A DNA stretch of 33,282 bases from a virus. The DNA is taken from positions 1 through 33,282 of IMG/VR virus record IMGVR_UViG_3300045988_114316, one strand, 5' to 3'. Positions 2,820-28,428 of the stretch are shown here, piece after piece. The notes beneath the pieces are model-generated. The model worked only from the letters and a program-made list of their open reading frames with translations. It was not told where the DNA came from and did no database searches. Numbering within the stretch: position 1 is the first letter of the stretch; every line of letters starts with the position of its first letter. Made by a program: the position numbers and the translations under genes.

Positions 2820-3026
2820 ATGATTGAATACAAAATAACAGAACATATCGCAACAATCAGCCAAAGGGGAGAGTGGTACCTGGAACTGAATCGAGTAAAA
2901 TGGAACAACGGCGAGGAAAAGCTGGATTTGCGTGCATGGAGCAGTGATCATTTGAAATGCAGCAAAGGAATCACGTTGACCGACGGCGAAGCGAAAACGC
3001 TGAGGGGTGCGTTAGAAGAAATTTAA
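2820..3026 (+). CDS. PC4/YdbC-like ssDNA-binding protein
   Basis: The 68-aa protein matches the YdbC/PC4 pattern W..EL..V.WN.....D.R.W..DH.K..KGITLT.E (ELNRVKWNNGEEKLDLRAWSSDHLKCSKGITLTDGEAKTL). RBS GAAAGAGGTAGAG. Confidence 0.75.
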   Translation: MIEYKITEHIATISQRGEWYLELNRVKWNNGEEKLDLRAWSSDHLKCSKGITLTDGEAKTLRGALEEI

Positions 3027-3050
3027 ACATTATATATATAGAAAGTAATC

Positions 3051-3107
3051 TGCCTGGGACAAGTCCCAGGCATAGCCATAGGCACAAAGGGAGTGGAAGT
3101 CTCCCTT
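3051..3107. promoter_or_regulatory. Two palindromic/hairpin elements upstream of rep (perfect 22-bp palindrome TGCCTGGGAC-AA-GTCCCAGGCA; 7-bp stem AAGGGAG..CTCCCTT). Candidate origin or regulatory site.
   Basis: Read directly; lies between the ssDNA-binding gene and the HUH Rep gene. Confidence 0.3.
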
Positions 3108-3144
3108 ACCTTCTCGCTTAGAGTATTATTATCAGGGACAAAAG

Positions 3145-3945: not shown

Positions 3946-3976
3946 GCGTAATTAGCATACGCGAAAGGAGGAAGAA

Positions 3977-4438
3977 GTGGAACCGAAAGAATTTCTGAGC
4001 CAGTACCGGAGGGCAGTAACGGATATAGAGAATCTGGAGACCGAAGCGGAAGAACTGGAGAACATGGCGATGGGAATCACGGTAAGTACAGAAGGTGATC
4101 GCGTACAAACATCGGGGAAAAAAGATCGAATGGCCGAACTGGCCGCAAAAGCCGCGGACATTCGAATAGACATCATGAGAAAAAGAACAGAAGCCCTGGA
4201 AGCAATGCACAGGGTCAGCAGACTTATCGCCGGAATGGAAAACAACCGATACAGAAAACTATTACACATGCGGTACATAAAGGGCGCTACTTGGGAAGAG
4301 ATCGCTGTGAACATGCATTATTCGATCAAGCACATATATAAACTGCACGGCTGGGCACTTCGGGAAATCCGCAGCGAGTTGAAAGAGGAGACTAAATGCG
4401 ACAAAAAGAGAGCGTATAATGATAGTGTGGACGAATGA
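3977..4438 (+). CDS. Phage late-gene transcriptional activator, sigma-70 region-4-like (ArpU/RinA-type)
   Basis: GTG start with RBS AAGGAGG. C-terminal YIKGATWEEIAVNMHYSIKHIYKLHGWALREI is a sigma region-4-like HTH. It sits immediately upstream of HNH and terminase, the usual position for RinA/ArpU-type activators. Confidence 0.55.
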   Translation: MEPKEFLSQYRRAVTDIENLETEAEELENMAMGITVSTEGDRVQTSGKKDRMAELAAKAADIRIDIMRKRTEALEAMHRVSRLIAGMENNRYRKLLHMRYIKGATWEEIAVNMHYSIKHIYKLHGWALREIRSELKEETKCDKKRAYNDSVDE

Positions 4439-4544
4439 AAAAATGTAAAAAAAGATGGGAGGCACTCTCCTGTACAAGATGTTTGTTGCCGTCCACATTC
4501 CTCTATACTCTGGGCGCTGTGCATGCGGCGCCCCATAAAAACAC

Positions 4545-4859
4545 ATGGCGAAACAGTTTGCAAAAAAATTCTATCACTCTGCAAAATGGAGGGCGGCGAG
4601 GAGTGCATACATTGACCGGCGCATCATGATCGATGGGGGTATGTGCGAAGTATGCCGCAAAAGACCGGGCTACATCGTGCACCATATCAAGAACCTCACG
4701 GAAGAAAACATCATTGATCCGGAAATAAGTCTCAACGAGGAAAACTTTCGGTTCGAGTGCAAGGCATGCCACGACCGGGAAGAAGGACACTTCATAAACG
4801 ATAAACGGACGTCGTGTATATTCGATGAAGAGGGGCAGCCGATACCAAAGAGTGAATAA
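4545..4859 (+). CDS. HNH endonuclease (terminase-associated)
   Basis: Motifs CEVC...HHIK...N....C..CH. Located directly upstream of the terS/terL pair. Confidence 0.85.
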   Translation: MAKQFAKKFYHSAKWRAARSAYIDRRIMIDGGMCEVCRKRPGYIVHHIKNLTEENIIDPEISLNEENFRFECKACHDREEGHFINDKRTSCIFDEEGQPIPKSE

Positions 4860-4960
4860 ATATTCATTAATCCCCCCTATTATACAAATTGGCGTCGACT
4901 ATCCTACACCGCATGCCGGACCACATTTATCACCGATGACGTGCGCAGGGGGAGGGGGTA

Positions 4961-5015
4961 CATATTTATAACTATGCAAAATAGAAAGGGAGCATATTTA
5001 TAACTATGCAAAATA
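4961..5015 (+). repeat. Perfect 23-bp direct repeat CATATTTATAACTATGCAAAATA x2 (4961-4983 and 4993-5015). The second copy contains the terS start codon.
   Basis: Read directly. The first copy creates a 9-codon decoy ORF (MQNRKGAYL) whose first three codons match those of terS. Confidence 0.85.
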
Positions 5016-5368
5016 AACCAGAAAAAACAAAAGATGAATTGATTTTGGCGACGTATCGAAAAATGCGTCGTTTTTTTAAAAATTTGGACAAAGATCGCAT
5101 GGAAATTGCTGACAGGCTATGCAAAAAAGCGGCGTTTATGGACGTAACCTTAAACGAGCTGCAGGAGAAGATCACCGAAGAAGGCGCAGTGATTGAAGGC
5201 GTAAACGGAAACGGATTTAAAGTGAAAATGGATAATCCAGCGATACGCAGCTATAATACCATGTTTAAAAATTACTCCGCGGCAATGAAGCAGCTAATCG
5301 AATTACTGCCAGAAACGGGCCAGTACAGCGACGAATTCATGACATTCGTTATGGGTAGAAAAAAATGA
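5006..5368 (+). CDS. terS: Terminase small subunit, P27 family
   Basis: 120 aa. Sits between HNH and terL. Terminase_4-like sequence (...VNGNGFKVKMDNPAIRSYNTMFKNY...). ATGA overlap with terL. Confidence 0.8.
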   Translation: MQNKPEKTKDELILATYRKMRRFFKNLDKDRMEIADRLCKKAAFMDVTLNELQEKITEEGAVIEGVNGNGFKVKMDNPAIRSYNTMFKNYSAAMKQLIELLPETGQYSDEFMTFVMGRKK

Positions 5369-7035
5369 TCGAGATGGAACAATATTTTACCGCAGTTGCC
5401 GACGGGGAAATCTGGTCATGCGAAAAGATGAAGAGGATCGCAGACAGGATTCTTGAGGATTATGCCTGCCCGGGCGAATATCATTTTGACGCGGAGCTGG
5501 CCAGCCGGCACATTGAGTTTATCGAACGATTCTGTAAGGTCCCGGCAGGAGACGTCGGGGCACCGTTGAGACTGGAACTATTCCAAAAGGCAAGACTGCA
5601 AACCATATTCGGTTTCGTCGATGATAACGACCTCCGGCAGTACAACGAAGTCATGATCGTAGAAGGCCGGAAAAACGGAAAAACAACGGAATGCGCCGCC
5701 GTCGAGCTGGATCTATTGATGAACGACGGAGAAGGCGCGCCAGAAATCTATAATATCGCCACAAAATATGAACAGGCGATGAAGGGTTTCACGGCAGCAA
5801 ATAATATGCGCGTCCAATCGAAAGAGATCAGTCAGCATCTACGAAAGAGAGCATCAGATCTTTACTGCCATTACAACATGGGGACCATAAAAGCGATGGC
5901 AAGTAACGTAAAAAGCCTGGACTCTTTAGACGCACACGGAGTGATCATTGACGAACTGGCGGCAATTACTAACAGAGATATCTATGACCTGATGAAACAA
6001 TCAATGGGAGCGAGAAAACAACCGCTCCTTTTTTGTATTACGACAAATGGATTCGTGCGGCATGGGATTTTTGATGCGCAGTATGAATACGCCTACAAAG
6101 TTTTGACCGGGGAAGTGAAGAATAAGCGATTCTTGCCGTTCATTTACGAATTGGACGACGTAAATGAGATGTGGGATCGGAAAAACTGGATCAAAGCCAA
6201 CCCGGGACTGGGAACGATCAAAAAAGAGTCGTTTCTGGAAGAGATGGTACAAAAGGCCAAAGATGATCCGCCGTTTAAACCGACGGTCATTGTGAAAGAT
6301 TTCAATATCCCGCAGACGAATGAAGCGGCGTGGTTACGCTATGAAGAACTGAATAATGAGGAGAAATTCGATATCAGATTCGATTACGCAATAGGTGGAT
6401 TCGATGCGGCGGACAGCATCGACTTGAATGCCGCCAAGGTGATTTGTATGCGGCCAGATGATCCGCATATTTACGTGAAATCCATGTATTGGATCCCAGA
6501 AAGCGTGCTGCAGCAGGCCGAAAAAATGGGAAACCGTCAGGAACGTGACCGGGTGCCATATTCATTGTGGATAAATCAGGGATATATGCGAACCTGTCCA
6601 GGACAGAAATGTGACAAACGCATTTTTTTAGAATGGTTTAAGGAACTTCGTGATGAAGAGGATTTATATATCCTGTACATCGGGTACGACCCGTGGCACA
6701 TTGATGATACGCTGCTACGGGAGTTCAAAACAGAATTCGGAGAAAGCAGCATGATCCCAATTCGGCAGGGGGTGAAAACCTTGTCTACGCCAATGAAGGA
6801 TCTGAAAGCAGAATTTCGAGAAAAGAACATCGTCTATAACAACAACCCCATAGACAAGTGGTGCCTGATCAATACTGCGGTGAAAACCGACGTCAATGGC
6901 AACATTCAACCCGTAAAAACAGAGGATCCAACGCAGCGAATCGACGGAACTATCGCCCTAATTTGCGCGTATAAAGTGTTGCAGGATTATAAAGACAGAT
7001 ACATCAACTTAAACGAACCGGAAGAAGGTGAGTAA
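5365..7035 (+). CDS. terL: Terminase large subunit (Terminase_1 family)
   Basis: 556 aa with a Walker A-like EGRKNGKTTE and a C-terminal nuclease domain; followed by the portal gene. Confidence 0.9.
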   Translation: MIEMEQYFTAVADGEIWSCEKMKRIADRILEDYACPGEYHFDAELASRHIEFIERFCKVPAGDVGAPLRLELFQKARLQTIFGFVDDNDLRQYNEVMIVEGRKNGKTTECAAVELDLLMNDGEGAPEIYNIATKYEQAMKGFTAANNMRVQSKEISQHLRKRASDLYCHYNMGTIKAMASNVKSLDSLDAHGVIIDELAAITNRDIYDLMKQSMGARKQPLLFCITTNGFVRHGIFDAQYEYAYKVLTGEVKNKRFLPFIYELDDVNEMWDRKNWIKANPGLGTIKKESFLEEMVQKAKDDPPFKPTVIVKDFNIPQTNEAAWLRYEELNNEEKFDIRFDYAIGGFDAADSIDLNAAKVICMRPDDPHIYVKSMYWIPESVLQQAEKMGNRQERDRVPYSLWINQGYMRTCPGQKCDKRIFLEWFKELRDEEDLYILYIGYDPWHIDDTLLREFKTEFGESSMIPIRQGVKTLSTPMKDLKAEFREKNIVYNNNPIDKWCLINTAVKTDVNGNIQPVKTEDPTQRIDGTIALICAYKVLQDYKDRYINLNEPEEGE

Positions 7036-8290
7036 GATCGGATTATTCGAAAAAATATTTTCAAAGTACGCAGTAAATAAAGCTACAGCGAGCTATTTTA
7101 ACACGCTAACTGCCTACCAACCGCAGTTTACCACGTTTAACGGTGGAATCTATGAAGCGCTGCTTTGCAGGGCATCAATTCACACATTCGCAAATCACTG
7201 TAGCAAACTGAAAGTGGAGGTCATGGGCAATGATAAGGGACTGAAAAACATTTTGTCCGTAAGGCCAAACCCCTGGCAGACCACATCGCAGTTTTTATAT
7301 CGGCTGGCCACAATTTTAGAAAACGATACGACAGCGTTTATCGTACCGATTTTAGATTCTGCAGACATGCGGATTCGCGGTTTATTTCCAGTCAAACCGG
7401 CGAATGTGACGGTAAAAGAGTACCGTGGTGAGGAATATATTCAATTCCTGTTTCCGACCGGGAAAACGGCAATGGTAGAGTCGAAATATGTCGGCACATT
7501 AACAAAGTTTCAATACAACGACGATCTGTTCGGATCGGGAAATAAACCGATGTATCCAACGATCCGTATGATCGACACGCAGGACCAGGGCATCGTTGAA
7601 GGCGTAAAAAGCAATGCCGCGATTCGATTTATGGCAACGTTAGCGGGAGTATTCAAAAAGAAGGACATTGAAGAGGCACGGAAGACGTTTGCTGAAACGA
7701 ATTTGCAGAACAACGACACGGGCGTAATGATGTTCGACGAAAAATTCCGCGACGTCAAACAGATTACATCAAATCCGGCATACATCGACGATAAACAAAT
7801 GCAGCAGATCAAGAACAATGTCTATAGCTATTTCGGAACAAATGAGGCGGTTTTAATGAACACATTCGACGAAGGGCAATGGAACGCCTACTACGAAGGG
7901 AAAGTGGAGCCGTTTGCTATTCAGGTATCCGAAGTCATTACGACAATGCTATACACACTGAGAGAGTTGGCATATGGAAACAAAGTGGTGTTAAGTTCGA
8001 ACCGGCTGGAATATGCGTCAAATGAAACAAAAATCAACGTGGTTACGCAGTTATTTGACCGGGGAATGATGACGAAAAACCAAGGTCTGGAAGTGTTTAA
8101 CATGCCACCGGTAGAAGACGGAGATAAATTCTACATCCGGAAAGAATACGCAGAACTGGACAAGCTGAATGAAGCGCAAGGGTTAGAAGCGCAAAATCCA
8201 TATCAGGAAGGAGAAAAAAATGCCAAAAAGTCAGGAGAGGGAGTACCGAACAATGCCGGTGATCCTTCCAGTGAAGGAGAAACGAATTGA
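7028..8290 (+). CDS. Portal protein, HK97 family
   Basis: GTG start giving MSKIGLFEKIF (HK97 portal N-terminal signature); 420 aa; lies between terL and the prohead protease. Confidence 0.8.
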   Translation: MSKIGLFEKIFSKYAVNKATASYFNTLTAYQPQFTTFNGGIYEALLCRASIHTFANHCSKLKVEVMGNDKGLKNILSVRPNPWQTTSQFLYRLATILENDTTAFIVPILDSADMRIRGLFPVKPANVTVKEYRGEEYIQFLFPTGKTAMVESKYVGTLTKFQYNDDLFGSGNKPMYPTIRMIDTQDQGIVEGVKSNAAIRFMATLAGVFKKKDIEEARKTFAETNLQNNDTGVMMFDEKFRDVKQITSNPAYIDDKQMQQIKNNVYSYFGTNEAVLMNTFDEGQWNAYYEGKVEPFAIQVSEVITTMLYTLRELAYGNKVVLSSNRLEYASNETKINVVTQLFDRGMMTKNQGLEVFNMPPVEDGDKFYIRKEYAELDKLNEAQGLEAQNPYQEGEKNAKKSGEGVPNNAGDPSSEGETN

Positions 8291-11457: not shown

Positions 11458-12510
11458 ATGGGTTTACCAAATATTACCGTGGAGTTTTTAACGAAGGCAA
11501 AGACAGCAATCACACGAAGTGAACGAGGGATCGTCTGCCTGGTCGTTGATGATACCACAAAGGAAACAGCCGTATCGGAATACAGCGCACTGAGCGAGGT
11601 ACTGTCGACAGACTATACGGCGGAAAACTACGCAGCAATCGAAGACGCGTTCACTGACGGGCCAACAAAGGTATATGTGGTAAGGATTCCTGACAGTAAA
11701 GCGTTTACGGACATTGAAGCTACGTTAGATACGTTGAAGTTTAATTGGTTGGCATATATCGGGCAGACGCAGACGGCAGTACCGACCTATGTCGAATCGC
11801 GAAACGCGAAACCGGCAGCCGTGCCAATCAAAGCCGTCGTGTATAACCAGCCGGCAGATGATCCGCATGTCGTCAATTTCACAAACACAAAAGTAAAACG
11901 AAAAGATGACGCGGCAGAAATCGACGGATACAAATACCTGGGCAGAATTGCCGGAATGTTAGCTGCATTACCGCTGGATCGCAGCAGCACGTACTACATT
12001 TTTAACGATCTGGAATCCGTTGTTGATGTAGCAGACGCAGGCTCTGCAGTAGATGACGGCGAATTTGTCCTATTTAACGACTATGGGACCGTTCGCGTAG
12101 CAAGAGGCGTGAATTCCGCCACTACTGTAGAAAACGAGGATTTAAAAAAGATCACGATCGTCGAAGGCATGGATCTGATGAAAGAGGACATCATTACGTC
12201 GTTCAAGGAAAGCTATATCGGAAAATACAAAAACACAGTGGACAACCAGACGGTTTTCATGGCCGCGGTAAATACCTATTTCCGGCAGCTCGAAATTGAA
12301 GATGTGTTAAGCCGGGATTTTAATAATCTGGCAGAGATCGATGTGGAAACGCAGCGGAAGGCGTGGATCTCAGCAGGAAAAACCGAAGCGATGGACTGGG
12401 ACACCGAAACGGTAAAAAAGAACCCGTACAAAACCTATGTTTACCTGCAAGCAAATGTCAGATTTTCCGATGCCATCGAAGATCTGCAGTTCAACGTATA
12501 TATGAACTAA
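11458..12510 (+). CDS. Putative tail sheath protein (XkdK position)
   Basis: 350 aa, immediately upstream of the tube-like gene and the frameshifted chaperone in a PBSX-like contractile tail cluster. Confidence 0.6.
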   Translation: MGLPNITVEFLTKAKTAITRSERGIVCLVVDDTTKETAVSEYSALSEVLSTDYTAENYAAIEDAFTDGPTKVYVVRIPDSKAFTDIEATLDTLKFNWLAYIGQTQTAVPTYVESRNAKPAAVPIKAVVYNQPADDPHVVNFTNTKVKRKDDAAEIDGYKYLGRIAGMLAALPLDRSSTYYIFNDLESVVDVADAGSAVDDGEFVLFNDYGTVRVARGVNSATTVENEDLKKITIVEGMDLMKEDIITSFKESYIGKYKNTVDNQTVFMAAVNTYFRQLEIEDVLSRDFNNLAEIDVETQRKAWISAGKTEAMDWDTETVKKNPYKTYVYLQANVRFSDAIEDLQFNVYMN

Positions 12511-13349: not shown

Positions 13350-13501
13350 TGGGCCGCGACGGAGAAGCGCAGATGATTGCGTTTTATCTCCTGCGCGGCC
13401 ATTCTTTAGATGAACTTTTCGGTTTAGGTATGATTGAAAAAATGTTCTATATCGCTGCGATGGAAAAATATGCTGAAGAGGTGAGCGAAGTTGGCAAGTA
13501 G
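12957..13501 (+). CDS. Tail assembly chaperone -1 frameshift fusion product (G-T-like)
   Basis: The A_AAA_AAC heptamer lies in the zero frame at 13340-13346. The -1 frame continues as KLMGRDGEAQMIAFYLLRG... to TAG 13499-13501, overlapping the tape-measure start. Confidence 0.6.
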
Positions 13502-15131
13502 AAAGTTAGCCGTCATTTTAAAACTGAAAGATGAAATTTCGAAGCCGCTTCGCAATGTTTCAAACGAAACGAAAAAGGTTCAGAATCAGGTGAAAATCGC
13601 CGATGCGCGAATTAAACGATTTGCGACGTCTATGGATAAAAAACTGACCAAAGCGGCAAAACGCGCAGCGGCAGGATTGGGGCTATTAGGTGCGGCGGCA
13701 GTGAAAACAGGTTTTTCTGAAGCGTTCGACATGGAAGGCTACCGCGCACAGTTGGAAACTGCCACGAAAGACACGCAAAAAGCGGCGAAAATCATGACCT
13801 ACGCAATGAACTACGCCAACAAAACGCCATTCGAAGGCGGCGAAGTCGTAGAAGGTGCGGCAAAGTTTGAATCGATGGGCATGTCAGCAAAAAAATGGCT
13901 GACCTATACCGGGGATATGGCGGGCGCGACAAACAAATCGTTCGATCAGGCCGTCGAAGCATTAATTGACGCGCAGACCGGAGAATTGGAGCGCCTAAAA
14001 GAGTTCGGCATTACAAAGCGACAAATCCAAGAAAAGGCCGAAAAAATGTTCACGAACGAACAGATCGTAAACAATAAAGGCCAGATCACCAATCAGAAAA
14101 AATTTAACCAGGCAATGCTCGCACTGATGGAAGACAAATTCGCCGGAGGTGCAGCCAAACAAGCGCAAACCCTAAAAGGCGCATGGTCCACAGTAACCGG
14201 AACGGTAAAAAGTGCGCTTGCCAACGTAATGGGCATGCAATCAGACGGAACTGTTCGAGCAGGAAGTGCATTCGACATTATCCGCGAAAAAATGATTAAG
14301 TTGGCAGAAACGCTGGACAAGTGGCAGCAAGACGGGACGATAGATCGGATCGCTGAAAAGGTAGGAAATGTATTTTCAAAAGCCTGCAACACAGCAGCCG
14401 ACGCGATCAAATGGTTGAAAGATAATGCGGATTGGCTGATTCCCGTTGCAAAAAATCTATTAAAGGCAATGCTTGTGCTAAAAGGAATCAGCGTTTTAAA
14501 AAATGCGTTCGATCAGGTTAAAACAGTGGTCGACGTATTAGGAAAAGCGTTTACTGGTTTAGATCCGAAAGTGCTGTTAATCCGATTAGCCATCGCCGCC
14601 GTCGTCGCAGTCGTGCTTTGGCTGATTAAAAACTGGAAAAAATTAGGAAAATGGATCGAAAAAGCGAAAAAATGGTTCATGAATGCCAGAGGGCCAATCG
14701 GCGTTTTTCGTGATGCAATTTTCGGGATCGTCGGCGTGATCCAGACGGTGGTCGGCTGGATCGGTACGGCAATAGATAAGTTCAAAGAACTATTCGGCCT
14801 TGCCGGCGACGCGGAAAAAATCAACAAAGCGACGGGAAAAGGCGCAAACAGCGCAAGAAGTATAGCAAACAGCGTAGCTGGACATGCCACAGGAACGGCA
14901 TATTTTAAAGGCGGTTTAACCGGGTTCTCTGAAAGAGGCCGTTCTGAAGCGGCGATTTTTCCGTCGGGTACGCAGATTATCCCTCATGATCAAGTACCGA
15001 AGATGGGAGGAGGCACGACCATTACGGTGAACTATACTGTTCAGGGGAACATGATTGGAAACGAAGAATACATGGAAAAATCCGGGAAATACATTGCAAA
15101 CAGAATCATATCTGCGTTAGGAAACTGCTAA
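13491..15131 (+). CDS. Tail tape measure protein
   Basis: 546 aa; TTG start with RBS GAGGTG; long helical sequence with internal hydrophobic segments (LLIRLAIAAVVAVVLWLI); follows the frameshifted chaperone. Confidence 0.8.
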   Translation: MASRKLAVILKLKDEISKPLRNVSNETKKVQNQVKIADARIKRFATSMDKKLTKAAKRAAAGLGLLGAAAVKTGFSEAFDMEGYRAQLETATKDTQKAAKIMTYAMNYANKTPFEGGEVVEGAAKFESMGMSAKKWLTYTGDMAGATNKSFDQAVEALIDAQTGELERLKEFGITKRQIQEKAEKMFTNEQIVNNKGQITNQKKFNQAMLALMEDKFAGGAAKQAQTLKGAWSTVTGTVKSALANVMGMQSDGTVRAGSAFDIIREKMIKLAETLDKWQQDGTIDRIAEKVGNVFSKACNTAADAIKWLKDNADWLIPVAKNLLKAMLVLKGISVLKNAFDQVKTVVDVLGKAFTGLDPKVLLIRLAIAAVVAVVLWLIKNWKKLGKWIEKAKKWFMNARGPIGVFRDAIFGIVGVIQTVVGWIGTAIDKFKELFGLAGDAEKINKATGKGANSARSIANSVAGHATGTAYFKGGLTGFSERGRSEAAIFPSGTQIIPHDQVPKMGGGTTITVNYTVQGNMIGNEEYMEKSGKYIANRIISALGNC

Positions 15132-16871: not shown

Positions 16872-17309
16872 ATGTTTCCCGAAGTAAATTATGATTTTGA
16901 AACAGAAGAAGAAAATCTGGTCGCCATGCAGTCGACGAAAATCGGGCGAACGCCGCTGTATGATTTCGATCGTGGTCGCTACGTCGTGAGAGACGGCAAG
17001 ATCATTGAATGCACCCAGAAAGAGGCGGTAAGGCAATGGGTCGGATTCTTGGTCAAAACTGCCGCGGATAAATTTGACGTATATGATGGAACGGATTTTG
17101 GTACATACATCGAAAACTACATCGGATACAAAGATACCGCGTTCGTCGCCAGTGAAATCAAACGCGAAGTCGAAGAAAAAGCACTGGACAATCGGGCAAT
17201 TGAAAGCATAGAAGATTTTCAGTTTAAAAAAGAAGGCGATAAGCTGACGATATCGTTAACAGTAGTAATGACAGACAAAACAGAGGTGGAGGTGGAAACC
17301 AGTGTCTGA
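16872..17309 (+). CDS. Baseplate wedge protein, XkdS/gp25-like
   Basis: 145 aa; directly upstream of baseplate J; start overlaps the J start (GTGTCTGA). Confidence 0.55.
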   Translation: MFPEVNYDFETEEENLVAMQSTKIGRTPLYDFDRGRYVVRDGKIIECTQKEAVRQWVGFLVKTAADKFDVYDGTDFGTYIENYIGYKDTAFVASEIKREVEEKALDNRAIESIEDFQFKKEGDKLTISLTVVMTDKTEVEVETSV

Positions 17310-18351
17310 AAACGGACAGGAAATTCGCGACCGGATCTCAAATGAATATGAAAAAACACCGGGGTATTTGATTTATGATTTGACGGAATCCGTAGGACAG
17401 GTTATGGACGAAATGGACACGGATCTGGCTGCAGTAGACGCAAAATTCGACATCGAAAATCTGACCGGGGACGAACTGGAACGATTCGTCAGCCAGCGAA
17501 AAGGCGTAAGTCGGCGGGCAGCCACCTACGCCAAAGGAACTGTTACCGTGACGGGAACCGGAACCGTAAGCCAAGGGGATATTTTTGAAACCCCGAATGG
17601 TGTACAGTTTGCAGCAGATGAAACCGTGCAGATTGTAAATACCGGCGAGGTACCGGTAACTGCACTGGTGTCTGGAAACACAGGTATGGTTGGTGCCGGC
17701 AGCATCACGCAGATGCCAGTAACGATCGCTGGGATAAATGCGTGCACAAACGCTGAACCTACACACGACGGATATGACGCAGAAACAGACGAAGCGCTAC
17801 GAGAACGGTATTTGTTAATACTGAGAAATCCGCCAGGCAGCAGCAATAAGGCGGCGTACAAAACGTGGGCGCTGGAAGTTAGTGGCGTTGGCGATGCAGA
17901 AGTATTTCCGCTGGCAAAAGGAGACAACACGGTTGACGTTGTCATCATCGATACGGACAAAAAACCAGCTTCAGAATTGTTGGTGCAGCAGGTGCAGGAA
18001 TACATTGATCCGGAATCATCAGGAAAAGGCGAAGGCGTCGCACCGATGGGCGCCCATTGCTATGTATCTGCAGCAACGGGTTTGGACATCAATATAACCG
18101 CAAAACTGACGGTAAATGGGGATCATACAACGATTGAACAGGGAATAAAGGATTCTATAGAAACGTATCTGGCCAGCATTGCGTTTACTGACGCGAACGT
18201 GTCCTATGCTCAAATTGGAAGCTGCATACTGGACGTGGAAGGGGTACTGGATTACGAACAACTGACGGTTAACAGCGGTACGGGAAACATCAGCGTGCCG
18301 GAGCGTAGTGTGGCAGTATTGGGAACGGCGGTATTCACCTATGCGGAATGA
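17302..18351 (+). CDS. Baseplate J-like protein (XkdT-like)
   Basis: 349 aa; GTG start with RBS GGAGGTGG; N-terminal YEKTPGYLIYDLTESVGQVMDE resembles the Baseplate_J family. Confidence 0.7.
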   Translation: MSENGQEIRDRISNEYEKTPGYLIYDLTESVGQVMDEMDTDLAAVDAKFDIENLTGDELERFVSQRKGVSRRAATYAKGTVTVTGTGTVSQGDIFETPNGVQFAADETVQIVNTGEVPVTALVSGNTGMVGAGSITQMPVTIAGINACTNAEPTHDGYDAETDEALRERYLLILRNPPGSSNKAAYKTWALEVSGVGDAEVFPLAKGDNTVDVVIIDTDKKPASELLVQQVQEYIDPESSGKGEGVAPMGAHCYVSAATGLDINITAKLTVNGDHTTIEQGIKDSIETYLASIAFTDANVSYAQIGSCILDVEGVLDYEQLTVNSGTGNISVPERSVAVLGTAVFTYAE

Positions 18352-18868
18352 TGAATTAAAACGAAAAGTAAATAAAATCAATCTGACCTGTCCAATGGTC
18401 AATGCCATTCTGGACGCGTTCGGCATGGAATTGGACGATCTGGACGGCCGAAGACGACAGATTAATGATGACATGTTCTTTGACACCTGTTCAGAAGAAA
18501 TGCTAAAGTTCTATGAAAATGAAGCGGGGATCACGCCTTATCAGTCAGACATCGATGACCGACGATATAGTTTGATTGCAAAATGGCGCGCATCGGGACA
18601 TACCAGTGTAGAAACACTACAGAACATTGCAGACAGCTGGAAATATGGAAAAACGGAAATTGATTTTCAAGATGGGAAGATCGTTGTCACGTTTACAGAC
18701 AAAGGAATACCAAACGACTTGGAAGGACTGAAAGCGGCGTTGGAAGATGCAAAACCTGCACATTTGCCGATTGAATATGTATTTACATACAATACATGGA
18801 ACGACGTGTTAACGCTGACATGGGATCAGGCTAAAACGTCGACATGGGACGAACTGCAAACGAGGTGA
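18341..18868 (+). CDS. XkdU-like tail protein (DUF2313 position)
   Basis: ATG 18341 gives MRNDELKRKV...; 175 aa; overlaps the J stop. Confidence 0.5.
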   Translation: MRNDELKRKVNKINLTCPMVNAILDAFGMELDDLDGRRRQINDDMFFDTCSEEMLKFYENEAGITPYQSDIDDRRYSLIAKWRASGHTSVETLQNIADSWKYGKTEIDFQDGKIVVTFTDKGIPNDLEGLKAALEDAKPAHLPIEYVFTYNTWNDVLTLTWDQAKTSTWDELQTR

Positions 18869-19272: not shown

Positions 19273-19857
19273 ATGGGACAGATTATTAATCAATTTCCCG
19301 GCGGCGGGGAAGATGTGACAGCAGAAGTACAGGTGCAGACTCCGCTGGTAGATCAGATCATGACCGCGCTGATCGGCAAAGTCGGAGATGATGCCAACGC
19401 GACAGCGGAAACGATCTTAGAAGGATATAAAGCGTGGGTACAGGGAGAAAAAGTCGTAGGAACATACAAAGTGAATGAAAGTATTGGAATAATTGAAAAG
19501 TTTTTCGGATGCACTGAATACACAGAAGATACTTTTACACTTAGTTCTAATTCATCTGCGTATGAAACCAAAATAAATCATTCTTTAGGTAAAGTTCCAA
19601 AATTGATATTTTTATATACAGAATGGAACCTTCCGGATTCATATATAAAATATGCTATGATAGATAATACACAAAAATTAGGCACTGTATACGCCTATTT
19701 ATGTGTAGAAAATTCACCATACGCAAATTACGGATTTAATGTAGAAGGTAGTTTTAATAATACAAGAGATAAGCAGCCTACATCTAATTCGTTTTATTTG
19801 GGTTCTACCAACGAATACTTTTCAGGCATAGAATACAAAGTAATTACTATGGCATAA
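19273..19857 (+). CDS. Tail fibre / receptor-binding protein A. Its AT-rich C-terminal module is paralogous to the C-terminus of the 20871-21515 gene.
   Basis: 194 aa; the shared KINHSLGKVPK motif; compositional drop from about 19480 onward. Confidence 0.45.
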   Translation: MGQIINQFPGGGEDVTAEVQVQTPLVDQIMTALIGKVGDDANATAETILEGYKAWVQGEKVVGTYKVNESIGIIEKFFGCTEYTEDTFTLSSNSSAYETKINHSLGKVPKLIFLYTEWNLPDSYIKYAMIDNTQKLGTVYAYLCVENSPYANYGFNVEGSFNNTRDKQPTSNSFYLGSTNEYFSGIEYKVITMA

Positions 19858-19868
19858 GGAGGAACAGA

Positions 19869-20429
19869 ATGAGTAATAAAATACAGCTGCAGGCGAACAA
19901 CATAGACCTGCAGACAATAAAAAACAACGTAGAAGAATTGCCAGAAAGTAACGCTTGGACAGGACAAACTTCTATCGTTCCGGGCACGCAATCAATAACC
20001 ATTCCGGCCTACACGGACAAAGAACTGACGGTTCAAGGAGACGCTGATTTAATCGCGGTCAATATAGCTGCCGGCATACAAATTTTTGGTGTAAATGGAA
20101 GTGCGAATGTAGCGCCGATGAAAGTTACTACTGGATCGTTTGTGCCGACAGAGTCAGGGTTCCTAAAAACCGTGACTGTACAGCATGGTATAGGCGCTAC
20201 ACCCCGTTTCTTTATGGCGTACAGCTTAGAAACCGGTGACGGTTACGACTGCTTATTCTTTAAAGCCTTTGTCGATCCGAAGAACCTGATTTATTCCATA
20301 GACACAGATTATCATGGCGGTTCTCCAGGTTATGAAAGAACAGACAGAGGGCTGGACAGTACGACGGCAGAATTAACCGCTCGAAAGATGTTTATTGGAG
20401 CAACGTATCACTGGATCGCCGTTGCATAA
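19869..20429 (+). CDS. Tail fibre protein B. Its N-terminus (MSNK.QLQANN.DLQ...TIPAYTD.ELTV) is paralogous to that of the 20871-21515 gene.
   Basis: 186 aa; RBS TAAGGAGG. Confidence 0.45.
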   Translation: MSNKIQLQANNIDLQTIKNNVEELPESNAWTGQTSIVPGTQSITIPAYTDKELTVQGDADLIAVNIAAGIQIFGVNGSANVAPMKVTTGSFVPTESGFLKTVTVQHGIGATPRFFMAYSLETGDGYDCLFFKAFVDPKNLIYSIDTDYHGGSPGYERTDRGLDSTTAELTARKMFIGATYHWIAVA

Positions 20430-20449: not shown

Positions 20450-20878
20450 ATGATTTATTATTACAAAGTCGAAGAAGAAGGAAAACTGAAAATGATTGGG
20501 ACGCAGTCATTCCCAGCAGTAGAAGGGCAGACGTCCGTCACGGAAGAAGAGTACAATCAGCTGATGAACGAGATCAAAGCACATGCTGAAACAGTACGCG
20601 GCTACGCAGATCAGCTGGTATCTGGAAGCATTGAGTATTCTGCAATTCCGGAAGATTACCGGGAGGAAGCGGGAATTTCCGCAGCACCGCAGTTTGCAGA
20701 CAAAATCATCGCCGGAGACATTACCATCGATGATATACCGTCTGAAATCAAAGACCGTGTGCAGGAAATCGTCGACAGCAGACCTAAAAACCCGTATGGA
20801 ATCAGCGATGAGTTATGCGAAACGATCAAGCAGGATACTGTAGACGAGATTGTAAGCGAGGTAAGTGAAAATGAGTAA
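20450..20878 (+). CDS. Hypothetical acidic protein within the tail-fibre cassette (possible fibre assembly factor)
   Basis: 142 aa; RBS AAAAAGGAGG. Confidence 0.35.
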   Translation: MIYYYKVEEEGKLKMIGTQSFPAVEGQTSVTEEEYNQLMNEIKAHAETVRGYADQLVSGSIEYSAIPEDYREEAGISAAPQFADKIIAGDITIDDIPSEIKDRVQEIVDSRPKNPYGISDELCETIKQDTVDEIVSEVSENE

Positions 20879-21515
20879 TAAAACGGATCTGCAGGCGAAT
20901 AACGCAGACCTGCAGCAAATTTTGCAAGCAGTTCAAGCTCTTCCTGCGGCAAATTCGTGGGGGGGGGGGTCAACCATAATTGAACCGGGAAGCGAAGCGG
21001 TCACGATCCCGGCTTACACCGATACGGAGCTGACCGTGAATCCAGTGCAGACGGAAGAAAAAACCGTTACACCATCAGGCAGTCAGCAGATTGTCACACC
21101 GGCAGCCGGCAAGTATCTGAGTAAAGTGACCGTCGGAGCTATTCCGGATTCGTACATGGACTTCATCTCGTTTGTCGGATACTCGCAAGTTGAAAAAGTG
21201 ACCTTTACACCATCAGCAAACACGACATTAAACAGAAAAACAATAAATCACTCGCTGGGTGTGAGGCCGAAAATGGTGATGATACTATCTGATATGATGG
21301 AAATAAGATCGCAGCAAAATCTATATTTTTCAGTAGCCGTAAGTCGGGACGGATCCTCTACGCTGACCGCGCTACAATTCATATCGTATGCTACTGACGT
21401 AGACACAAGGGACTATCCGATGAACGTAACGGCTTCGACTGCAGAGTTTATAAGCGATGCAGCCGGACTCTACTACACCGGAGGACAGGAGTATACCGTT
21501 TTATTATTTGCGTAA
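20871..21515 (+). CDS. Tail fibre protein D. A chimeric paralogue (N-terminus like gene B, C-terminus like gene A) carrying an in-frame G11 tract.
   Basis: ATG 20871 with RBS GAGGTAAG (the track ORF starts at GTG 20865); WGGGS is encoded by tggggggggggg. Confidence 0.45.
   Translation: MSNKTDLQANNADLQQILQAVQALPAANSWGGGSTIIEPGSEAVTIPAYTDTELTVNPVQTEEKTVTPSGSQQIVTPAAGKYLSKVTVGAIPDSYMDFISFVGYSQVEKVTFTPSANTTLNRKTINHSLGVRPKMVMILSDMMEIRSQQNLYFSVAVSRDGSSTLTALQFISYATDVDTRDYPMNVTASTAEFISDAAGLYYTGGQEYTVLLFA
20959..20969 (+). repeat. Homopolymeric G11 tract inside the tail-fibre gene D coding sequence
   Basis: Read directly (aaattcgtggggggggggtcaacc). Confidence 0.9.
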
Positions 21516-22664: not shown

Positions 22665-22925
22665 ATGAAAGTAAACTGGAAGGTAAGACTAAAAAATAAG
22701 ACGTGGCTGCTGGCGTTTTTGGGAACAATTATCACATTTATCTACCAGATTTTAGGCATGATCGGTATTGTTCCACCGATTTCTGAGGACAATGTAACGC
22801 AGATCATCGGCATTCTGGTTAATCTGTTGGTAGCAATAGGCGTTGTGCAGGATCCGACTACCGCCGGTGTAGCCGACAGCCAGCAGGCTTTAGAATACAG
22901 CGAACCACGAAAGGAAAACGAGTAA
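22665..22925 (+). CDS. Holin, phage phi LC3 family (Phage_holin_1)
   Basis: MKVNWKVRLKN...two TM segments...VQDPTTAGVADSQQAL matches the phiLC3 holin family; RBS AAAGGAG. Confidence 0.8.
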   Translation: MKVNWKVRLKNKTWLLAFLGTIITFIYQILGMIGIVPPISEDNVTQIIGILVNLLVAIGVVQDPTTAGVADSQQALEYSEPRKENE

Positions 22926-23914
22926 TGGCTACAGCAAAAATGACAGGAATTGATGTATCCTACTGGCAGGGAAAACCAGGTCTATCTGCATTTAAAACGT
23001 TCAAAAACGCTGGTTGGGATTTTATCGTCGCCCGTATTGGCTATGCGTCCGGTGGGCAGCGCTATCCGGACAGCACGTTTGAAACAAACTATAAAAACAG
23101 TAACAGCGCCGGTCTGCGGATCGGCGTCTACTTTTACAGCAATGCCCGCAGCGCGGCAGAGGGAAAAGCCGAAGCGAACTATGTTATCAGCCTGCTGCAG
23201 GGAAAAGCGCTGAATCTGCCGGTATTCATTGATGTGGAGGACAATGCGACATCGGGAACGGCAAGCAAAACAAATCTGGCCGCAGCCTGCAAAGCGTTTT
23301 GCGAAACCATCGAAGATGCCGGATATATGGCCGGAGTATATGCGTCCACATCATGGTTTCAATCCAAAATCGGCAGTTTGGGTAATCTAAGTAAGTGGGT
23401 AGCACAATATAACGATCGTGTGACCTACAGCGGAGATTATGATATGTGGCAGTATTCCAGTACGACAACGGTGAAAGGATTTTCCGGACGGCGGGACGTG
23501 AATAAATGCTACGTTGGTTACGACGACAATTTTCTGATCCGGCCAAAGATGAATCTGCTGATCCGCAAAGGCTACGGTCTGAAATCAAAAAAACTCGGAA
23601 CACTGGATAAAAACGGAATTTACCGGGTTACCAAAACAGCCAGCAATGGAACACGGGGATATATCCCCGGGAAAGGCTGGGTAACGGTGACGGCAAAATA
23701 TGCAAAAGAAGTTGACTTTACGGATAATGTCCGGGTAAAGACCAAAGGAAAACTGATTTACCGGGAATCGCCACTGCTATCGTCAAAAAACAAGGGAAAG
23801 TTAAAAGCGAACACAGTATATATTGTATCCCGCATCAGCCAAGACGGAACACGAGGATACGTTCATGGATATGGTTGGATTACAATCGCAAATAAGTATG
23901 TAGCATTTGTTTAG
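22925..23914 (+). CDS. Endolysin: GH25 muramidase plus two SH3b-like cell-wall-binding repeats
   Basis: GIDVSYWQG...FIVARIGY...GLRIGVYFYS is a GH25 signature. There are two C-terminal ~65-aa repeats (GTRGYIPGKGWVTV and GTRGYVHGYGWITI). Confidence 0.9.
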   Translation: MATAKMTGIDVSYWQGKPGLSAFKTFKNAGWDFIVARIGYASGGQRYPDSTFETNYKNSNSAGLRIGVYFYSNARSAAEGKAEANYVISLLQGKALNLPVFIDVEDNATSGTASKTNLAAACKAFCETIEDAGYMAGVYASTSWFQSKIGSLGNLSKWVAQYNDRVTYSGDYDMWQYSSTTTVKGFSGRRDVNKCYVGYDDNFLIRPKMNLLIRKGYGLKSKKLGTLDKNGIYRVTKTASNGTRGYIPGKGWVTVTAKYAKEVDFTDNVRVKTKGKLIYRESPLLSSKNKGKLKANTVYIVSRISQDGTRGYVHGYGWITIANKYVAFV

Positions 23915-24072: not shown

Positions 24073-24507
24073 ATGGGTAAATATAGAGCTATGGATATTG
24101 CAAAATACGTGATTTCAAAATGCACAGAGGATAAAAAACCAATAACAAATTTACAGCTGCAAAAAATTCTGTTCTTTATTCAACGGGATTATTTGAAGGA
24201 AAATTCTTGTCCGCTTTTTTCAGATGATGTAGAAGCGTGGCAATTTGGCCCAGTAGTCGCCGATGTCTATTATGCCTTTTGCGGTATGGGATCGATGAAA
24301 ATTCTTGGTGAATATACTCCATCAACGAGCATTGAAAAAAATGATAGATGTTTTATAGATAAAATCGTCGAAGCAAAAAGAGAAAAATATCCGTGGGATC
24401 TCGTAAGAGAAAGTCATAAAAAAGACGGAGCTTGGGACACCATTTTTCAAAATGGAGAAGGAAATCATTGCATCATACCGATCAAACTAATAGCAGAAAG
24501 AGGATAA
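24073..24507 (+). CDS. Panacea-domain (DUF4065, SocA/PanA-like) protein
   Basis: ITNLQLQKILFFIQRDYLKENSCPLFSDDVEAWQFGPVVADVYYAF matches the DUF4065 core (...KLLY..q...l...g.plf.d.ieAw.yGPVv..vY). Confidence 0.65.
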   Translation: MGKYRAMDIAKYVISKCTEDKKPITNLQLQKILFFIQRDYLKENSCPLFSDDVEAWQFGPVVADVYYAFCGMGSMKILGEYTPSTSIEKNDRCFIDKIVEAKREKYPWDLVRESHKKDGAWDTIFQNGEGNHCIIPIKLIAERG

Positions 24508-24508
24508 C

Positions 24509-25309
24509 GTGTTTGAAAGCAGTGTAGTTAATGAAGATGAAAAAAGGCAGGCGCTAATTGAGCTTTTAAAGGAACTATCAATTCGTCAGGATATTCTTGA
24601 AAGTGGGGAAGAAAAGGAATATTTTCTTGCTAAGTTTCAAGAAGTATATAGCTATCCGAGTAGTGATGAACTGTATCGGCATTACTACTCGGATATTTTT
24701 GCCGTTATTTCGCAAATCGATCAAAAATTAATTGATGGAGATAAAGAGACTCTGTCACAAAATATGGAGTTGTTTAAAACATACTGTGAATTGCAATTTC
24801 AGGAGCAGAAAATATCCGATAACTTTTTAAAGGCTATTCGTAAATTATATGACCATGTAAATTTAGATGTTGCGAGATTAAACTACTTTTCCAAAATCAT
24901 GGAAACGTCAGAACAGAATTTAAAAGATATTGCTCCTAAGATAGATTCTTTACGTACTGAGCAAAAAGAAATACAGGCAAATATAGATGATGCTAAAAAG
25001 ATTGGAAGAGACTATATCACTATTTTAGGAATTTTTGCATCGATTGTATTGGCATTTACAGGAGGAATTGCTTTTTCTACTTCTGTATTAGAAAATATTA
25101 ATGCAGTTAGTCCAGTAAGACTTGCAGCAGTAATTATTGGACTGGCATTTGTTTTAATTAATGTCGTATATATACTAACTCGTTTTATCCAGGAAATAAA
25201 TAAAAGGAAAGAAGAAAAAATTAAAACACCGCTCTTTATTGTTGCTATTGATATAGTTTTGATCATAGCATCATTAATCATTTTTATTTACTATCTATAT
25301 ACAATTTAA
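24509..25309 (+). CDS. Membrane protein with an N-terminal helical cytoplasmic domain (~175 aa) and three C-terminal TM helices; candidate toxin/effector partner of the Panacea protein
   Basis: GTG start 1 nt after the upstream stop with RBS GAAAGAGGA; TM segments ITILGIFASIVLAFTGGIAF, LAAVIIGLAFVLINVVYIL and LFIVAIDIVLIIASLIIFIYYLY. Confidence 0.6.
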   Translation: MFESSVVNEDEKRQALIELLKELSIRQDILESGEEKEYFLAKFQEVYSYPSSDELYRHYYSDIFAVISQIDQKLIDGDKETLSQNMELFKTYCELQFQEQKISDNFLKAIRKLYDHVNLDVARLNYFSKIMETSEQNLKDIAPKIDSLRTEQKEIQANIDDAKKIGRDYITILGIFASIVLAFTGGIAFSTSVLENINAVSPVRLAAVIIGLAFVLINVVYILTRFIQEINKRKEEKIKTPLFIVAIDIVLIIASLIIFIYYLYTI

Positions 25310-26491: not shown

Positions 26492-27547
26492 TTAAACAAT
26501 GTTGACACGCGTATGGCACGGATCAGAAACATATTCATTCATTTTTTCTCTGGCAGATTCCATAGATTTTTCCGTGTGGTGCGTATAAATTTGCGCGGTA
26601 ACTTTTATGGACGAGTGACCCATCAAAACCTTAGCCACATTGATCGGGACACCGGCGTCCTGGAGATCCGTGCAAAACGTATGCCTTAAACAATATGGAA
26701 CCAGATCTGGAGATACTGAGAAAGGGTGCTCTTCCTCCATGCTTTTTTTGAATGACTTCCAGCTTTTTTGAAATGTACTATTCGTGAATCTTTTACCTCT
26801 GGGTGTCGTAAAAACCGGCTCAAATGGTTTCAGATCGAGTTTTCTCAATTCCTTTGCGTAAACATCTACTATAGGTACTTTCCTGACACCTGCAGAGGTT
26901 TTTGGAGCCTTTTTATTTCCGTTGTAATCGATGTTAGAGCGTACATAGACCAGATTATTCTTTAAATCTATGTCACGGCCTTCGAGGGCGGCGACCTCCA
27001 TAGTTCTCAAACCACAAAAAAGCATCATTTTGAGGTACATTCCCAACGGGTGGTGATCTGATACCTCTAATATGATTCTTCGCTCAGAATCGCTTATAGA
27101 GCGCCTTGAAATGTGCTCACTGACCATTGGGCGTTTAATGTTTTTTACAGGATTGGCACGAATAAGATCGTTGTCTGCAGCGGTTTCAAAAAAGGATTTA
27201 ACCACTGCCAAATATTTGCTATATGTGATCTGAGACAACCCGCTCAACGAGTTTGCCCAGATCTGCACGTTTTTCTGCGCGATCTTGTTGAGGGGGAAAT
27301 TTCCATACATACTGCAAAATGAATTTAAGATGCAGTGAATATTTTTGTTCCATTTTCCGTTTATAGCGGGCCTGAATGTTTCAGGCCATTCTTTTGCCCA
27401 TTGCGAACAGGTTATATTTTTTCGGATAATAAGAACATTTTCGTCAATATCGCGGATTTTCAAAGCCTTTTTTACTTCAAAGTCCTTTTCGTCTTTTGCC
27501 CTAATGAAATACCGCTGTCTCTCATACGTAAAAGATTTCCTTATCAT
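26492..27547 (-). CDS. int: Tyrosine-type integrase (site-specific recombinase)
   Basis: C-terminal LRHTFCTDL...LMGHSSIKVTAQIYTH (R, HxxR and Y catalytic motifs). The start is set at the second ATG (MIRKSF), which is preceded by AAGGAGGA; the first ATG at 27571 has no RBS. Confidence 0.9.
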   Translation of the reverse strand: MIRKSFTYERQRYFIRAKDEKDFEVKKALKIRDIDENVLIIRKNITCSQWAKEWPETFRPAINGKWNKNIHCILNSFCSMYGNFPLNKIAQKNVQIWANSLSGLSQITYSKYLAVVKSFFETAADNDLIRANPVKNIKRPMVSEHISRRSISDSERRIILEVSDHHPLGMYLKMMLFCGLRTMEVAALEGRDIDLKNNLVYVRSNIDYNGNKKAPKTSAGVRKVPIVDVYAKELRKLDLKPFEPVFTTPRGKRFTNSTFQKSWKSFKKSMEEEHPFSVSPDLVPYCLRHTFCTDLQDAGVPINVAKVLMGHSSIKVTAQIYTHHTEKSMESAREKMNEYVSDPCHTRVNIV

Positions 27548-27582
27548 GATATCCTCCTTTCTGTCTCTCATTTTGTAAAATT

Positions 27583-27734: not shown

Positions 27735-28253
27735 TTAATAACCTACTTGAGATACTCCATATTCAGCTTGATCTTGTGTGAATCCCTCGTATAATAGTTG
27801 TTCGATCAATCCTTCACGGGAAAATGAAGAGGTATCAAGGTATTCTTGTGCTTTTTTAGCCGCTTGTTCTTTCCAGTTAGCCCCGCAGTTGTCAACTGCG
27901 TAAGTCGCTTCTTCTGTTGTATAGCCTTCATATTCTAACTGATCGATTAAACCGGTTCTCGAAAATGACATTAAACTCAAATAACTTTGCGCTTGATCTA
28001 ATGCGTTCTGTTCTCCTATGGTAGCATCATTTTCATTATCAGAAGCTTTCGTGTTGTTTTGAGTCTCAGTGTTTTCCTCAGTAACTATTTGATCATTATC
28101 TTTTGGTGCAGTTGTTGTTTCGTCATCGCCTCCAGACATTGCACCAATTATTCCGATAACGAGAATAACGACAATGACAATAAACCACCATTTCTTATAA
28201 AACGGTTTTTTCACTGGGGGGGTAACGTTACTTGAGTTCATTTCTTTCTTCAT
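27735..28253 (-). CDS. Ltp-family superinfection-exclusion protein (two Ltp repeats, N-terminal membrane anchor)
   Basis: Two copies of the A...A..YL....FSR.GLI.QL.YEGFT..EA.YAVD motif. The start is set at the second ATG (MKKEMNSS), which is preceded by AAAGGAG. Confidence 0.8.
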   Translation of the reverse strand: MKKEMNSSNVTPPVKKPFYKKWWFIVIVVILVIGIIGAMSGGDDETTTAPKDNDQIVTEENTETQNNTKASDNENDATIGEQNALDQAQSYLSLMSFSRTGLIDQLEYEGYTTEEATYAVDNCGANWKEQAAKKAQEYLDTSSFSREGLIEQLLYEGFTQDQAEYGVSQVGY

Positions 28254-28428
28254 TTTTCTTTCTCCTTTTTTTCTTTTTATTAAAACGGTCAAGCCGAATT
28301 AATCTATATAAATATTGTTTTTGATAGAAAGATTTATTCGCAATAGCTTAAAAACACAAATGTTCGATAATGGTTATATTTTTAGCACCCCTCTCGAACG
28401 GACTCTCGAAGTATACAAAGAATTGCTA

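Follow-up and report, generated by a model that had tools for sequence, protein, structure and literature searches.

Tracts of 7-11 G within receptor-binding protein genes of Campylobacter Fletchervirus phages are described by Sørensen et al. (2021, Cell Rep 35:109214), among the findings of that study, as a source of phenotypic diversity that helps these phages to evade receptor phase variation. In bacteria, slipped-strand mispairing at homopolymers underlies the contingency loci of surface genes in Neisseria, Haemophilus, Campylobacter and Bordetella (PMC5084427, PMC1891110). Gomez, Barrick and Waters (2025, bioRxiv 10.1101/2025.10.21.683753) extended contingency loci to T2/T4 and other phages, and reported that homopolymer repeats are under-represented in coliphage tail fibres. 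Poly-G tracts are also listed, together with invertible segments and diversity-generating retroelements (DGRs), as determinants of phage host range (PMC12823448). Here we analyze a 33,282-nt stretch of viral DNA (positions 1 to 33,282 of the IMG/VR record IMGVR_UViG_3300045988_114316; the whole stretch is hereafter called the window), in which the plus-strand gene D (20871..21515), encoding a putative small tail-fibre or receptor-binding protein of 214 amino acids (aa), contains an uninterrupted run of 11 G (G11; 20959..20969, plus strand). To our knowledge, homopolymer-slippage phase variation of phage receptor-binding genes has been shown experimentally only in Campylobacter phages, and our literature searches found no earlier report of such a switch for the phage group considered here. 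From the comparison of related loci, we consider it likely that G11 is a hypermutable tract that acts as a slipped-strand contingency locus and would switch the putative fibre gene D ON and OFF in the phage population.

The G11 tract and its variation in length

The G11 run is bordered by T at both ends and is read in the frame of gene D, close to the 5' end of the gene (tcg TGG GGG GGG GGG tca, encoding S-W-G-G-G-S, with the tract contributing to W30-G31-G32-G33), as the first-pass annotation, made from the DNA alone, had proposed. It is thus an uninterrupted repeat inside an open reading frame (ORF), at codons 30-33, of a length capable of slipping (about 7 nt or more for G/C). No other G or C run in the window exceeds 7 nt, and the number of G runs of at least 11 nt expected by chance is approximately 0.005, under independent, identically distributed and first-order models alike. 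Across the 27 plus-strand ORFs from the terminase to the endolysin, GGG accounts for 17.8% of the Gly codons, and consecutive GGG codons occur in none of the 14 other Gly-Gly(-Gly) runs. The first-pass annotation was also right that paralogue B has no such tract at the equivalent position: the sequence there is gct tgg aca gga caa act, encoding A-W-T-G-Q-T, and this gene is constitutively in frame.

When the tract length was varied in simulation, G8, G11 and G14 remained in frame in the context of the window, and G10 and G12 yielded products of 35 and 37 aa, respectively, in agreement with the earlier suggestion that a change of one G truncates the protein after about 35 codons. With this, every fact stated in the first-pass annotation is confirmed. 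Alternative long products in the shifted frames are ruled out, both of these frames reaching a stop 2-5 codons past the tract. As for the alternative restarts that were to be looked for, an in-frame GTG (21036-21038) is present downstream of the tract and is preceded, with a 6-nt spacer, by GGAG (21026-21029), so that 21026..21038 on the plus strand is a candidate internal restart. Gene callers use this GTG in out-of-frame alleles, which results in 159-aa calls beginning with MNPVQTEEK. Its possible use in vivo would give a protein without the N-terminal module described below. Another GTG (20957), located on the 5' margin of the tract, was rejected as a start; no Shine-Dalgarno sequence precedes it, and the calls of 184-187 aa that begin there most likely reflect an artefact of gene calling.

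A protein search returned 64 homologues of gene D, the closest of which fall into three length classes: full-length proteins of 213-216 aa, proteins of 203 aa with an unrelated N-terminus, and proteins of 159 aa starting from MNPVQTEEK. At the DNA level, the homologues of odd length are frameshifted versions of gene D. A protein identical to gene D (P0065, from JGI/IMG and ENA) is present in the cluster table, and an exact look-up of the window's own gene D protein returned no encoding contig. The fibre region had no match among 50,697 cultured-phage records in a distant-mode DNA search, and scans of viral contigs for relatives, both protein-based and by flank pattern, were empty; the relatives were therefore taken from metagenome protein look-ups. 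The resulting set consists of 25 loci (L001-L025) from independent samples, including a metagenome-assembled genome (MAG) of Emergencia (L004), in each of which all copies of the N-terminal module were located and the adjacent tract was measured.

Tract-length polymorphism, which the first-pass annotation had suggested looking for in related phages, is clearly present: the orthologous DNA tracts comprise G8, G9, G10, G11 and G14, and G7 is implied by a gene call. Invariant, interrupted GGN codons, named beforehand as the pattern that would speak against phase variation, were not found in the tract-bearing orthologues, all of which keep an unbroken G run. In the context gccgt-Gn-tcaacc, gene D is in frame (ON) with G8, in L007, L008 and L009, and out of frame (OFF) with G9, in L001, the second copy of L003, L005, L006 and L025. 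In the context ggctc-Gn-tcaacc, G9 is ON (L011-L017), and G8 (L020), G10 (L019 and L021) and G11 (L002, L004, L018, L022, L023 and L024) are OFF. The window itself, with the context attcgt-Gn-tcaacc, is ON at G11. In lineages with attcgt-Gn-caacc, a TCA-to-GCA change (Ser to Ala) lengthened the run by one, and both G10 (the first copy of L003) and G14 (L010) are OFF. In one lineage with an identical downstream sequence of 159 aa, G8, G9, G10 and G11 are all represented, and only G9 is in frame.

At the sequence level, the in-frame lengths correspond to products of 213-218 aa, and the other lengths to stubs of 34-43 aa. The members of the protein clusters add in-frame WGGA and WLGGGS forms, and gene calls starting with MGGS, MGGGS, MGGA, MGGGGA and MARGGGS correspond to G7-G14. 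Gene callers render the OFF alleles as fragments of 36-43, 80, 159, 184-187 and 203 aa that are clustered with full-length proteins (the P0001 and P0002 clusters); the 203-aa form begins in the wrong frame, upstream of the tract. These fragments are a systematic artefact of annotation that the switch brings about. The 80-aa cluster members were considered as a possible different kind of disruption, which was ruled out: they are OFF alleles on long contigs, with the downstream ORF intact.

A second paralogue class, missing from the window, has its own tract at the same junction. In the context tggtc-Gn-tactatc, G8 is OFF (L011, L012, L014 and L018) and G9 is ON (L004, L016 and L019); in the context tggtcc-Gn-tactatc, G7 (L025), G9 (L007) and G10 (L005 and L006) are all OFF. 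All four combinations of the states of the two switches were found, namely (class 2/gene D) ON/ON in L016, OFF/ON in L011, L012 and L014, ON/OFF in L004 and L019, and OFF/OFF in L018.

To compare the tracts with other sites, all loci were aligned to L012, used as the reference, over 6 kb. L018 shows no mismatches to L012 over 4,521 bp and has two additional G in the gene D tract; L021 (3,455 bp, +1 G), L022 (2,417 bp, +2 G) and L024 (1,278 bp, +2 G) are also free of mismatches. L019 differs by 2 mismatches over 5,830 bp and by one additional G in each tract, and the Emergencia MAG L004 by 2 mismatches over 5,627 bp and by +1 G and +2 G. Thus, in these near-identical loci (0-2 substitutions over 1.3-5.8 kb), the sole indels are changes in the G count of the two tracts; four A6/T6 runs in the aligned region show no variation. 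Between L005 and L007, there are 13 substitutions over 3,495 bp and only 2 indels, of one G in each tract. Over the approximately 190 kb of collected loci, the G/C runs of at least 7 nt are limited to the fibre tracts and one invariant G7. No other sites in this phage group come close to the tracts in their proneness to indels.

Several points weigh against a contingency locus in gene D. The data are consensus contigs, and the variation of the tracts is a between-sample comparison that does not cover the within-sample level. All the relatives come from short-read metagenome assemblies, some with a coverage of only 2-4x, and their genomes contain no other G run of at least 8 nt that could serve as a like-for-like error control. 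The relatives recovered are 88-94% identical to the window at the DNA level, none of them being near-identical to it, so that the polymorphism pertains to orthologous tracts and not to this exact genome. Among the cluster contigs listed, approximately 20 are ON and 50 OFF, in a sampling that was not unbiased (for one cluster, the listing covered 15 of its 31 members). Drift without selection would leave about one-third of the alleles in frame, which is close to these counts, so that selection for the ON state at any one time is not evident. Finally, genes D, B and A belong to no Pfam, PHROG or NCBIfam family, leaving receptor binding without curated-family support, and gene D has no significant fold match in the PDB (Foldseek; best E-value 0.016, with a cut-off of 1e-3).

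Some of these points bear on the possibility that the differences in tract length are sequencing or assembly artefacts, resulting from slippage in library PCR (polymerase chain reaction) or from low-coverage consensus, the true genomes all being in frame. We regard this explanation as very improbable. It draws on the short-read origin of all the data, on the 2-4x coverage of L005, L006, L007 and L016, and on the nature of the invariant controls, which are short A6/T6 runs, not equivalent to G9-G11. However, differences of at least 2 nt are common (G9 versus G11, and G14), and consensus errors that large are unlikely. Out-of-frame G11 is seen in four samples of one cohort (L018, L022, L023 and L024), in the unrelated 11x contig L002 and in the MAG L004; its recurrence across the four cohort samples indicates that it is heritable, a pattern that random read error would not produce. 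Furthermore, the variation spans Logan contigs, SPAdes NODE contigs, MEGAHIT k141 contigs and scaffolds, and the two different tracts vary independently. In Illumina sequencing, where each cycle yields a single base, homopolymer length is not an intrinsic source of error, and this also counts against an artefact.

Selection on the OFF alleles and the proposed switch

The ORF downstream of the tract is intact (180-185 codons) in 26 of the 26 gene-D-type copies, 15 of which are OFF. The Nei-Gojobori ratios of nonsynonymous to synonymous substitution rates (dN/dS) between diverged alleles are in the range of 0.11 to 0.3, and pairs in which both alleles are OFF fall within this range (0.18 for L001 and L002, 0.19 for L001 and L010, and 0.18 for L002 and L010). 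By this measure, purifying selection acts on the post-tract domain even where a lineage is at present OFF, which requires the OFF states to be short-lived, reversible or leaky. At least five flanking contexts preserve the G run without interruption, even though one synonymous substitution would be enough to break it, and in-frame alleles of several lengths (G8, G9 and G11) exist, each in its own context. Pseudogene decay was ruled out by the intact ORFs and the low dN/dS values; judging from the alleles compared, the OFF alleles appear to be reversible OFF states, not pseudogenes.

A related explanation holds that gene D is dispensable, an accessory gene in the course of being lost; the tract would be a mutational hotspot without adaptive value, and the OFF alleles would represent early pseudogenes in rarely lytic prophages. 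The OFF alleles are in the majority, and the tract-free paralogues A and B of the window could cover the function of gene D, both of which are compatible with such loss, as is an 80-bp internal deletion in the out-of-frame class-2 gene of L006. This deletion, seen in comparison with L005 and L007 (alignment columns 2028-2107) in a locus with 2x coverage, could be either real decay or an assembly artefact. The downstream ORFs and the dN/dS values, low even between OFF alleles, contradict gene loss, and so does the unbroken G run in two paralogue classes. In addition, the TCA-to-GCA change extended the run in some lineages instead of breaking it, and in-frame alleles come in three different lengths. 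We give gene loss very little credence.

It is also conceivable that RNA polymerase slippage or ribosomal frameshifting restores the frame in some transcripts, in which case the tract would be an expression rheostat or neutral, and the OFF state leaky. The ON fraction of about one-third, similar to that under drift, coexists with strong purifying selection downstream, as would be expected if the OFF alleles made some protein, and transcriptional slippage is an established phenomenon on A/T runs of at least 9 nt. Slippage during elongation is, however, documented mainly on A/T runs, whereas poly-G tracts act phenotypically as ON/OFF switches in bacteria and in Campylobacter phages. No stimulatory structure or shifty heptamer turned up, with no search aimed at these, and rapid reversible switching accounts for the pattern equally well. 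We consider a restored frame unlikely.

Under the preferred reading, that of a DNA-level contingency locus, the tract would gain and lose G's through slipped-strand mispairing as the DNA is replicated, whether in the prophage or in lytic growth. Located in a flexible Gly linker, right after the conserved N-terminal module of the putative fibre protein, the tract in the context of the window would keep the C-terminal binding domain in frame with G8, G11 and G14 (ON), and other lengths would end translation 2-5 codons past the tract, leaving a stub of 34-38 aa (OFF). In relatives, another paralogue has an independent tract of its own at this junction, which would add a further switch. The virions in a phage population would then carry differing sets of fibre paralogues, potentially amounting to bet-hedging on the recognition of host surfaces. 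We infer replication slippage as the cause, receptor binding as the role of the product, and the ecological benefit.

Architecture and genomic context of gene D

Gene D starts with ATG 20871, with GAGG located 9 nt upstream; a mechanical ORF list places the start at GTG 20865. The ATG is taken as the real start because all the homologues begin with MSNK. The N-terminal module (20871..20958, plus strand; MSNKxxLQxNNxxLQxI..V..LP...W) is conserved and common to several paralogues per phage. It is presumably an anchoring or oligomerization part and, of the parts of gene D, is the only one translated from OFF alleles. The post-tract part (20970..21512, plus strand) consists of a conserved STIIEPGSEAVTIPAYTDTELT segment, a single VQTEEKTVTPS..GKYLSKVTVGAI unit (aa 57-93) and a variable C-terminal beta domain (approximately aa 105-214). 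In an AlphaFold model of gene D built with 33 homologues (mean predicted local distance difference test score, pLDDT, of 72), there is a helix at aa 4-22 and a C-terminal beta domain, and the segment of lowest confidence is the Gly run between the N-terminal helix and the remainder (aa 31-35, pLDDT <50). The low confidence of this segment suggests that in-frame lengths adding or removing a Gly should be tolerated; WGGS, WGGGS and WLGGGS forms are all present among the homologues.

The unit of approximately 35 aa, VQTEEKTVTPS..Q.VTP..GKYLSKVTVGAI, that occurs once in gene D (21039-21149 of the window) is present in 3-6 tandem copies in larger homologues (P0017, P0032, P0050 and P0059), and one larger homologue with these repeats also carries CBM_5_12 (a CBM5/12 carbohydrate-binding module). 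No Pfam model covers this unit, which is probably a fibre-shaft repeat. P0032, P0050 and P0059 were examined as carriers of the N-terminal module and rejected; the part they have in common with gene D is the internal repeat.

The label of gene D as a tail-fibre or receptor-binding protein seems reasonable given its synteny, its modular architecture and weak fold matches. Foldseek comparison with BFVD gave weak, consistent matches to proteins of uncultured phages annotated as "tail fiber" or "tail" (E-values of 2e-5 to 3e-4, template-modelling score of about 0.33), and comparison with PDB sequence profiles gave only a marginal coiled-coil match of the N-terminal module (3jqh). With regard to synteny, gene D follows the Baseplate_J (17302-18351, plus strand) and Mu gp48-like (18308-18868, plus strand) genes and precedes the holin and endolysin genes. 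The genes A, B, C and D lie between the baseplate and lysis genes, which is the usual location of tail fibres, and this synteny assigns A, B and D to the fibre region of a phage with a contractile tail.

Paralogue A (194 aa; 19273..19857, plus strand) has a C-terminal domain related to that of D (INHSLG..PK motif), a different N-terminus and no tract. Paralogue B (186 aa; 19869..20429, plus strand) has the same N-terminal module as D and contains no homopolymer. Gene C (142 aa; 20450..20878, plus strand) directly precedes D, its stop overlapping the start of D by 8 nt, and in most of the relatives a 142-aa gene is likewise located immediately upstream of the tract-bearing D-type gene. The matches of gene C are weak (phrog_1382; NCBIfam CD1375_fam, E-value 9e-5); a possible role is that of an assembly factor for the fibre, with its translation coupled to that of D.

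The N-terminal module together with the tract is present on at least two paralogue classes, and in L002 the module is fused to a 402-aa DUF6273/DUF7483 protein (L002:797). The fibre cassette including both tracts (approximately 3000-7500) is nearly identical in L011 and L012, with 27 mismatches in 4,290 bp. The baseplates of these two phages differ, L011 encoding Tail_P2_I (PF09684; P2 gpI-type) and L012 Mu Gp48 (PF10076), and the lysis modules differ as well (GH25 versus Amidase_3). The fibre cassette thus appears, on this comparison, to have been exchanged between different tail backbones. It is possible, although we advance this only tentatively, that the poly-G switch is part of a portable module combining an anchor with a linker, and that such modules form a mobile, combinatorial, enzyme-free host-range switchboard with two or more independent bits. 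If true, this would be the first such system in phages of Gram-positive commensals, directly observable in ordinary metagenomes, and a lysogen population would be a reservoir of pre-diversified virion types.

Besides the baseplate genes, Pfam searches identified in the window the large terminase (5365-7035), the sheath (11458-12510), the tape measure (13491-15131), a GH25 endolysin (22925-23914) and, on the minus strand, an integrase (26492-27571). The window represents a temperate, contractile-tail (myovirus-like) phage or prophage. A 141-kb contig from the MAG of an uncultured Emergencia sp. (Clostridia, Anaerovoracaceae) carries a closely related prophage; on this single genome match, Emergencia is the best available host assignment.

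Two other loci of the window are worth mentioning. The second-longest G/C run, G7 at 28216-28222 (C7 on the coding strand), is located approximately 70 nt into a minus-strand ORF (27735-28292) encoding an Ltp-type surface lipoprotein (PF07553, E-value 2e-33), a family linked to superinfection exclusion. This run is constant in all three copies compared (the window, 12095-12101 of L010 and 11783-11789 of L012) and shows no sign of variation. Between the endolysin and the lysogeny genes, a gene for a SocA/Panacea antitoxin-domain protein (24073-24507; PF13274, E-value 8e-16) is directly followed by a gene for a 266-aa protein (24509-25309) with a hydrophobic C-terminus and no family match. The pair (24073-25309), which is also present in L008 (9654-10890), looks like a toxin-antitoxin system of the Panacea type or defence cargo.

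Comparison with known systems

The main question about gut phages is which hosts they can infect. For the temperate phages of Emergencia, a lineage of gut Clostridia, the present analysis of natural metagenome data points to a switch of this kind; there are two independent switches, and every combination of their ON and OFF states is represented. There are also practical consequences. Gene callers split or truncate tract-containing genes, so annotation pipelines and protein clustering misrepresent them, and the poly-G length in the cassette is a ready-made marker for phage sub-populations in read data.

The locus resembles the Fletchervirus system in having an intragenic poly-G tract of 7-11 nt in a phage tail or receptor-binding gene (here putative), in that changes of tract length shift the frame, in the phage population of mixed phenotype that would result, and in the presence of several tract-bearing genes per phage. 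The Fletchervirus phages, however, are lytic, with experimental demonstration of both the switching and the phenotypes, and their Gram-negative host has poly-G phase variation of its own. The phages analyzed here are temperate (integrase) and myovirus-like, are linked to Emergencia (Clostridia), and are characterized by comparative evidence only. The products of their tract-bearing genes are paralogues of about 200 aa that differ in sequence from the Fletchervirus proteins, and the tract lies in a Gly linker at a domain junction. Given that the fibre region has no DNA match among cultured phages, close relatedness to the Fletchervirus receptor-binding proteins is excluded.

With the bacterial contingency loci, the tract shares its position near the 5' end of the ORF of a surface-interaction gene (here putative), the frequent changes of ±1, the ON and OFF alleles with an intact downstream ORF, and the combinatorial variation that arises from several loci. 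The difference is that this locus is phage-borne, the unit of selection being the attachment repertoire of the virion. The contingency loci of T2/T4 and other phages are similar with respect to homopolymers in phage genes, reversible frameshifts and bet-hedging, but most of them are short (at least 6 nt) and lie in non-structural genes, agt and rIIA among them, whereas the tract of gene D is much longer and is located in a putative fibre gene. The Gin/G segment of Mu, Cin of P1 and Mtd of BPP-1 serve what would be the same purpose: within a phage lineage, they switch the specificity of receptor binding stochastically and heritably. In Mu and P1, site-specific inversion swaps C-termini, and in DGRs such as that of BPP-1, codons are rewritten via reverse transcription. 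In contrast, the switch described here would need no dedicated enzyme, and neither an invertase nor a reverse transcriptase was noticed among the genes of the fibre region.

Thus, the mechanism is already known from Campylobacter phages. What is new is its apparent occurrence in temperate phages of gut Clostridia, in small, putative fibre paralogues that are not closely related to the proteins of the Campylobacter phages, with the tract placed in a Gly linker and with two switches in some of the relatives.

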